DNA from: Escherichia phage JLK-2012
Sequence record: NC_049942.1
Reading direction: 5' to 3' (one strand)
DNA length: 57,198 nt
In this document: positions 10,382 to 10,546 of the stretch, in pieces
Layout of the letters: every line of letters starts with the position of its first letter
Numbering within the stretch: the stretch's first letter is position 1
The notes under the pieces: generated by a model
The model's input: the letters and a program-made list of their open reading frames with translations, nothing else
Told to the model about the DNA's origin: nothing
Database searches by the model: none
Position numbers and translations under genes: made by a program

Positions 10382-10546
10382 GAACTTTGGTGGTGTGGTA
10401 GGTGGGAGACCCATTTCGACCTGTTTCGGCCTACTTCAATTCGGCAATAGTCCCGCAGGCCTCGCCGCTTTACGTGCGACATATTCCCGTCCATGAACCC
10501 TTCACCACACCCCAAAGTTCACTTTGGTTATTGCGCTTTGTCAGCG
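10382..10546 (-). promoter_or_regulatory. nutL region and N leader: boxA-like CGCTGACAAAGCG (10534-10546, minus strand), palindrome CCAAAGT-N2-ACTTTGG (10512-10527) and long-range inverted repeat (10382-10399 vs 10503-10520)
   Basis: The same 13-mer boxA-like sequence recurs at the nutR position (14047-14059); the inverted repeat arms are reverse complements with one indel. Confidence 0.5.

Follow-up and report, generated by a model that had tools for sequence, protein, structure and literature searches.

A pL-leader stem of a 933W-type Stx prophage, homologous to that of the lambda N leader, and its predicted role in RNase III control of N translation

Gene N, pL and the nut sites

The window analysed here, i.e. 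the whole 57,198-nt sequence of Escherichia phage JLK-2012 (NC_049942.1), is a 933W-type Stx prophage, and the 400 bases around the stem that is the subject of this work are 100% identical to phage 933W and to many other Stx1- and Stx2-converting phages. Gene N (9984–10367, minus strand) codes for an antiterminator of 127 aa that belongs to the H-19B/933W/HK97 type and is arginine-rich at its N-terminus: the protein shows 100% identity with 933W N, matches the Pfam family N_peptide (PF25694, E = 2e-15), and carries an arginine-rich motif of the P22/H-19B kind; a PDB sequence search with the protein returned nothing useful. Its translation start (10365–10378, minus strand) comprises a Shine-Dalgarno (SD) sequence AGGAGG at 10378–10373 and an AUG at 10367–10365. 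The ORF at 9934–10050 was suspected of holding what is left of an N C-terminus of the phage-21 type, but this was ruled out, as no alignment with VT2-Sakai N was found.

A promoter scan for sigma-70 places pL at 10617–10645 (minus strand; −35 TTGATA, 17-nt spacer, −10 CATTAT). The promoter overlaps OL1/OL2 of the GQ499365 annotation, the operators of which map to 10621–10636 and 10643–10658 of the window. Alignment with the pL start of lambda and mEp234, ATCAGCAGGACGC, puts the presumed transcription start at about 10609 and hence gives an N leader of about 242 nt. As N lies on the minus strand and pL lies upstream of it on the same strand, the element between them is a pL leader RNA and is read on the minus strand throughout. 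The first ~14 nt of the pL transcript, (A/G)UCAGCAGGACGC (10609–10590), are common to lambda, P22, VT2-Sakai, HK620 and the 933W-type, and this conservation persists despite differing immunity regions and N genes (the window and loci L004, L257, L258 and L259); the “boxA” of the mEp234-type annotation overlaps this conserved transcript start and does not lie beside boxB.

Several neighbours of the leader were observed in passing. A two-ORF transposase pair of IS type (8254–9467, minus strand) lies ~500 nt downstream of N in the pL operon and in the same orientation; the 108-aa ORF matches Pfam HTH_Tnp_1, the 295-aa ORF matches HTH_21 and the rve integrase core, and the pair looks like an IS3-family element by its arrangement. 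On the other side, between the cI-like repressor gene (12994–13701) and pL/N, lies a gene for a eukaryote-like Ser/Thr protein kinase (11023–12069, minus strand; Pfam Pkinase, E = 2e-46), which matches the stk annotated in 933W-type immunity regions; a terminator-like hairpin (10836–10857) follows two shorter ORFs located between the kinase gene and pL/N.

The nutL site (10533–10599, minus strand) is defined by the annotation of the identical sequence in GQ499365 and by that of mEp234 (EF120460). It consists of a boxA-like sequence CGCAUUACU (10599–10591), annotated in relatives and located far upstream of boxB; an inter-box hairpin GAUUC-GAAUAU-GAAUC (10567–10552); and a boxB, GCGCUGACAAAGCGC (10547–10533), that folds into a 5-bp stem with a GACAA pentaloop. 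The same 15-mer is annotated as the nutL boxB in mEp234, closes the annotated nutL of phage 22deltatox, and is letter-identical to the P22 boxB 15-mer of the N-peptide complex in PDB 1A4T (PMC11480772). It recurs in nutR (14015–14060, plus strand), which is located after cro and comprises a boxA-like sequence CGCUAUUUU (14015–14023), an inter-box hairpin GGAC-AUUC-GUCC (14030–14041) and a boxB UCGCUGACAAAGCGA (14046–14060); the two boxB sequences differ only by a compensatory change of the closing pair from G-C to U-A. The segment 10547–10533 is thus a P22-type boxB: the “boxA-like 13-mer” that the original prediction saw in this place is in fact GCGCUGACAAAGCGC, as judged from the annotation of relatives, the identity with P22 and the recurrence in nutR. 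The nutL of 933W resembles both P22 nutL (PDB 1A4T), with which it shares the boxB, and the NUT site of H-19B (nutR), where a spacer hairpin and a boxB hairpin were described (PMC3526286); these systems concern antitermination and not the long stem, and bear only on the assignment of boxA and boxB.

The long-range stem and its homologues

Along the pL transcript, boxB (10547–10533) is followed by the stem (10522–10380) and then by the SD (10378–10373). The original prediction had reported two plus-strand 18-mers, GAACTTTGGTGGTGTGGT (10382–10399) and CACCACACCCCAAAGTTC (10503–10520), as reverse complements save for one indel that enclose about 100 nt, and we confirm both points: the indel is an extra T at 10391 on the plus strand, which becomes a bulged A in the RNA, and owing to this single indel a repeat search returns the inverted repeat as two gapless pieces (I1 and I5). 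Both the minimum free energy (MFE) structure and the partition function pair 10522–10512 with 10390–10380 and 10511–10504 with 10399–10392, which makes a stem of 19 bp (11 bp, the bulged A at 10391, and 8 bp), i.e. a duplex of roughly two helical turns. The 5′ arm (10504–10522, minus strand), delimited by folding, homology with lambda and covariation, consists of GUGAACUUUGG followed by GGUGUGGU, and its G/U-rich part resembles the boxC of lambda and rrn; the 3′ arm (10380–10399, minus strand) consists of ACCACACC, the bulged A and CCAAAGUUCAU. The stem lies closer to the ribosome-binding site than had been stated: the distance of 15 nt is that from the arm of the original prediction to the AUG, the same arm is 3 nt from the SD, and the base of the extended stem (U10380) sits 1 nt from AGGAGG.

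RNA folding, one of the checks that had been suggested for this element, yields a stable pairing with the long-range stem in the MFE structure. Pair probabilities are 0.86–1.0 over the 19 bp, and none of the 18 pairs that fall within the arms originally proposed is below 0.95; the duplex of the arms alone has a predicted energy of −32.8 kcal/mol; and the fold of the whole leader has a z-score of −3.55, with none of 200 shuffled sequences folding as well. The best one-bulge helix contains 18 Watson-Crick pairs, whereas 500 dinucleotide-preserving shuffles of the leader gave 8.6 on average and never more than 13. An intrinsic terminator or attenuator was ruled out, since the 3′ arm is followed by CAUCAGGAGG without a U tract and the terminator scan is blank here. 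A coding role of the region (a 65-aa minus-strand and a 38-aa plus-strand ORF run across the hairpin) was also rejected, because unrelated sequences replace the interior of the hairpin in other phages and the variation is compensatory. A search of the literature for the sequences of the arms returned unrelated primers only.

The arms of the lambda N leader, GCUUUGGGGUGUGUG and CACACACC-A-CCAAAGC, match those of 933W including the bulge; the 5′ strand of lambda reads GGCUUUGG-GGUGUGUG (GCUUUGG-GGUGUGUG), and CUUUGGGGUGUG and CACACCACCAAAG are common to the arms of the 933W-type and lambda. On the evidence of these sequences, the 933W stem is a clear homologue of the lambda N-leader stem. The leaders of P22, VT2-Sakai, HK620 and phi80 show the same layout, and the purine-CCAAAG motif of the 3′ arm is the same in each of the six N-leader types that were examined, a constancy that suggests a sequence-specific role of this motif.

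To survey the stem more broadly, leaders were gathered from GenBank phages and from IMG/VR, the latter scanned with exact patterns that comprised the 3′ arm and the SD as they occur in the 933W, lambda, P22 and VT2-Sakai types. The CCAAAG is paired over long range in the MFE structure of the leader itself in 165 of 175 distinct leaders of the 933W, lambda and phi80 types, with hairpin spans of 52–218 nt across the 175. Covariation was assessed on 67 distinct arm pairs, taken from leaders of the lambda, 933W and phi80 types and aligned without gaps: standard pairs occupy 91.4% of cells, compared to 37–41% when the partner is slid by 1–3 columns, the former value carrying a slight bias toward pairing from the choice of the best-pairing upstream [CT]TTT[GA][GT] site as 5′ anchor, a site that in nearly all leaders is the one fixed by the conserved palindrome described below. 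Both sides have changed in 14 of the 20 pairs, and 170 double-change cells are observed against 45.8 in column shuffles, none of 500 shuffles reaching the observed values. The covariation and the shared layout together indicate that the stem is a selected RNA structure common to lambdoid N leaders, and we regard it as very probably a functional RNA.

Like the lambda N-leader site, the 933W stem is located on the pL transcript after the boxB of nutL and before the N SD; its arms are near-identical to those of lambda, (G/A)CUUUGG-GGUGUG... and ...CACACC-A-CCAAAG, with the same bulged A; and it is preceded by a competing copy of CAAAG. The two systems also differ: the stem has 19 bp in 933W and 16 bp in lambda; it ends 1 nt from the SD in 933W and about 8 nt from it in lambda; the interiors are unrelated in sequence; the nutL of 933W is of the P22/H-19B type, with an extra inter-box hairpin and without a canonical boxA beside boxB; and cleavage and regulation in 933W are predictions only. 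The likeness to the RNase III-processed leader of lambda that was noted originally is therefore upheld: 933W and lambda agree in the arms, in the bulged purine and in the placement of the stem between nutL and the SD, and the covariation is strong. It is likely, by analogy with lambda, that the stem is the orthologue of the RNase III processing hairpin of the lambda N leader and that it acts in 933W through the same effect on N translation; the homology of the arms lends good support to this reading, with cleavage itself being predicted.

The local hairpin and the interior of the stem

The palindrome CCAAAGTGAACTTTGG of the original prediction is present at 10527–10512 and does overlap the 5′ arm, as had been reported. 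In the RNA it forms a local hairpin CCAAAG-UGAA-CUUUGG (10512–10527, minus strand) of 6 bp with a 4-nt loop, in which an upstream copy at 10527–10522 pairs with 10517–10512, i.e. with the base of the 5′ arm; this pairing is in competition with the 6 basal pairs of the long stem and excludes them. The hairpin is predicted to form in transcripts that end before the 3′ arm (−6.4 kcal/mol), and at equilibrium the long stem displaces it in the 933W fold. A three-part layout of upstream copy, 5′ base and 3′ CCAAAG is found in 933W and in four other N-leader types: the upstream copy and the 5′ base read UCAAAGC and GCUUUGG in lambda, CCAAAG and CUUUGG in HK620, CCAAAC and GUUUGG in P22 (L257, 255–276; P22-type loci L260–L379), and CCACA and UGUGG in VT2-Sakai (L258, 363–378; Sakai-type loci L380–L489). 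In the P22 and VT2-Sakai types both sides of the local hairpin have changed, while the 3′ CCAAAG is unchanged and mismatched in the basal long-range helix. Such compensation of the local pairs next to a mismatched CCAAAG favours a real role of the local hairpin, as a folding aid or as a switch, and a perfect local hairpin alongside a mismatched basal helix suggests that selection may exceed that for a simple RNase III duplex; as the P22 and the VT2-Sakai change may each be a single evolutionary event, we infer this role rather than state it. The palindrome itself is real and conserved as a hairpin; it offers the base of the 5′ arm an alternative partner and is separate from boxB.

Inside the long hairpin (10400–10503, minus strand) lies the “933W core” of family F1, a structured RNA of ~104 nt with several branches. 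It occurs at 90–100% identity in phages with 933W-, lambda- and phi80-type flanks, at 84 loci in total (including L006, L003, L007 and L184), and is also present in the lambda-N phage CL707, in phi80 and in PA2. Its consensus fold is a cloverleaf-like four-arm junction with compensatory pairs at alignment columns 61–98 and 62–97; a tRNA-like nature of the core is unsupported, as both ARAGORN and Rfam are blank on 10400–10503 despite the shape of the fold. An Rfam E-value search of 9800–11100 gave chance-level matches only, with no family covering the leader.

Clustering of the interiors (95 distinct hairpins from about 240 loci) sorted them into at least 25 unrelated families that share one closing base of CUUUGG, purine bulge and CCAAAG, and several of these families occur with more than one N type. 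Two of them score as tRNA: the interior at L066 (1552–1678, minus strand) matches Rfam tRNA RF00005 with 39.6 bits (cut-off 29) and has a 70-nt insert in the anticodon arm, and the interior at L176 (369–450, minus strand) is called tRNA-Pro(AGG) by ARAGORN and scores 34.8 bits with Rfam. In these tRNA-like interiors the upper leader stem doubles as acceptor stem, with the bulged A and the CCA of CCAAAG in the position of the discriminator base and CCA end. In two further families a T-loop hairpin with GGUUCGA is stacked on the 3′ arm. ARAGORN, run on the window and 29 related loci, found no tRNA or tmRNA except in L176.

A paper of 2026 describes P22B, a 96-nt RNA that accumulates in P22-infected cells and in vesicles (PMC13397905). 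This RNA maps to the 3′ two-thirds of the P22 gene-24 leader hairpin (L257, AB362338, 301–396), which has a layout homologous to that of the 933W leader and an interior of a different, F7-like family; its 3′ end lies 16 nt before the start codon, and its ends differ from the predicted RNase III cuts. Excerpts of that paper do not link P22B to RNase III or to the leader stem. In enterohaemorrhagic E. coli (EHEC), the phage anti-sRNAs are located at the PR′ moron site and not in the N leader (PMC4104026), and a preprint on the Pas sRNA contained nothing on N leaders.

These observations bear on a second reading that is compatible with the RNase III model: the stem may mainly serve to fold and excise the enclosed RNA, in the manner of the rrn stalk, so that the ~104-nt core would be a stable phage sRNA with a role of its own. 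In its broadest form, the N-leader stem would be a universal lambdoid “cassette holder” for at least 25 unrelated and horizontally exchanged structured RNAs, in part tRNA-like; its constant base would combine an upstream decoy copy and the 5′ strand with a bulged purine and the invariant CCAAAG, and from it RNase III would release an enclosed stable sRNA with a function of its own, as P22B might be. We regard both forms as possible but rather doubtful. The exchange of so many unrelated interiors (at least 25, in spans of 52–218 nt) within a constant base and the recurrence of the same cores with different N genes speak for this reading, and so do the conserved multi-branch fold of the 933W core with its internal compensatory pairs, the two families (L066 and L176) that score as tRNA, and the accumulation of P22B (PMC13397905), which covers part of the P22 gene-24 leader hairpin. 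The rrn leader supplies a precedent, as its boxC is part of the RNase III stem around 16S rRNA (PMC8632103). However, the 933W core has no Rfam, tRNA or tmRNA match and no target or partner of it was identified; the ends of P22B do not coincide with the predicted RNase III cuts; and the turnover of interiors could reflect neutral drift or recombination in a hairpin whose stem is constrained only to close. If this reading were true, 10400–10503 would be an undescribed sRNA of Stx phages, and the local hairpin would be a co-transcriptional folding switch that lets the whole design tolerate any insert.

The parallel with rrn extends to the order of elements: in both leaders a loading site for Nus factors precedes a G/U-rich, boxC-like strand whose pairing partner lies at a distance, and the RNase III duplex around a structured RNA in rrn has its counterpart in the predicted RNase III duplex of 933W (PMC8632103, PMC2724277). 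The two leaders differ in that 933W encloses about 100 nt compared to 1.5 kb in rrn; in that the downstream product in 933W is an mRNA, with its SD abutting the stem; and in the arrangement of boxA and boxB, which in 933W is opposite to the boxB-boxA-boxC order of rrn.

A nuclease-free switch, in which the segments 10527–10522, 10517–10512 and 10390–10385 choose between pairing of the first with the second and of the second with the third and thereby set SD accessibility or folding order, possibly under the influence of the N-Nus complex on the adjacent boxB, is in our judgement unlikely. It would account for the formation of the local hairpin first in truncated transcripts; for the retention of this hairpin in five N-leader types, with compensation specific to the local pairing in P22 (C-G) and in Sakai (C-G); and for a 3′ CCAAAG that is invariant yet mismatched in the P22 and Sakai types. 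Against it, the long stem dominates at equilibrium in 933W, with probabilities of about 1.0; every one of the compensatory changes may be one evolutionary event; the local hairpin may be a folding aid only; and pairing in the phi80-type is imperfect.

It is very improbable that the element acts at the DNA level, in which case the arms would bound a mobile or mosaic module, as its terminal inverted repeats or as recombination boundaries, and the RNA structure would be incidental. Mosaic junctions do lie in or beside the arms, flanks of the lambda, 933W and phi80 types all accompany the 933W core, and phi80 and PA2 are homologous over 10385–10517 only; but the compensatory changes keep the pairing and not the sequence, only the transcribed strand tolerates G-U pairs, every phage has the element in its fixed place between nutL and the N SD, and no transposase or integrase is associated with the element.

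The labels of the original prediction, with the palindrome as boxB and the adjacent 13-mer as boxA, retain next to no probability: a hairpin does lie a few nucleotides from nutL, but the neighbouring sequence at 10547–10533 is a P22-type boxB and the arginine-rich motif of N is of the P22/H-19B kind, nutR repeats this boxB and not the palindrome, and the palindrome forms a 6-bp stem with a 4-nt loop whereas boxB has a 5-bp stem with a pentaloop.

Predicted RNase III control of N translation

In lambda, RNase III cuts the N-leader stem on both strands beside the bulged A; this cleavage relieves both structural hindrance of the ribosome-binding site and NUTL-dependent autorepression; and the abundance of RNase III couples N synthesis to growth conditions.

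The RNase III reading that we prefer predicts the following course in 933W. Transcription from pL would first yield nutL with its boxA-like sequence, inter-box hairpin and P22-type boxB; the small hairpin would next occupy the base of the 5′ arm temporarily while the core of ~100 nt is transcribed; and on emergence of the 3′ arm the 19-bp stem would supplant the small hairpin and abut the SD at a distance of 1 nt. Host RNase III would then cut both strands of the stem near the bulge, at sites that the lambda cuts place at about G10512/G10511 and C10390/C10389. Cleavage is predicted to leave an N mRNA with a short unstructured 5′ end and to part it from the NUTL-bound complex of N, Nus factors and RNA polymerase, a repressor of N translation in cis in lambda. 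In this way N synthesis would be tied to the cellular level of RNase III, with consequences for read-through to Q and stx. In silico, the full leader has a less open SD/AUG region than an mRNA that begins at 10389; the difference is modest and depends on the assumed 5′ end.

Published observations on lambda are in line with such a course. N and Nus factors at NutL repress N translation ~200 nt downstream, with a highly structured leader between the two, according to passages of PMC5725501 that cite Wilson 1997 and 2002; the rnc70 allele of RNase III alters the regulation of lambda N mRNA (PMC8708148); and the lambda N leader is counted among RNase III targets in a passage of PMC5371410 that cites Steege 1987. 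References given for the lambda site are Steege 1987, Kameyama 1991, and Wilson 1997 and 2002. Our literature search returned no paper linking RNase III to the N of Stx phages.

The type of stem described here is already known from lambda, and it is the pattern of exchangeable and in part tRNA-like interiors together with the competing hairpin that makes the locus worth following up; the hypervariable, sometimes tRNA-like interior suggests a possible and unexplored source of phage small RNAs. The revision of nutL matters for the annotation and the mutation of such phages, as the true boxB is of the P22-type and the palindrome, originally put forward as a candidate boxB, has no copy in nutR and is adjoined by that boxB at 10547–10533. 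N is the first regulator of the lytic cascade, and in Stx phages N-dependent read-through is needed for Q and hence for stx. Should RNase III gate N translation in 933W-type phages as it does in lambda, the development of these toxin phages would be coupled to the growth physiology of the host.
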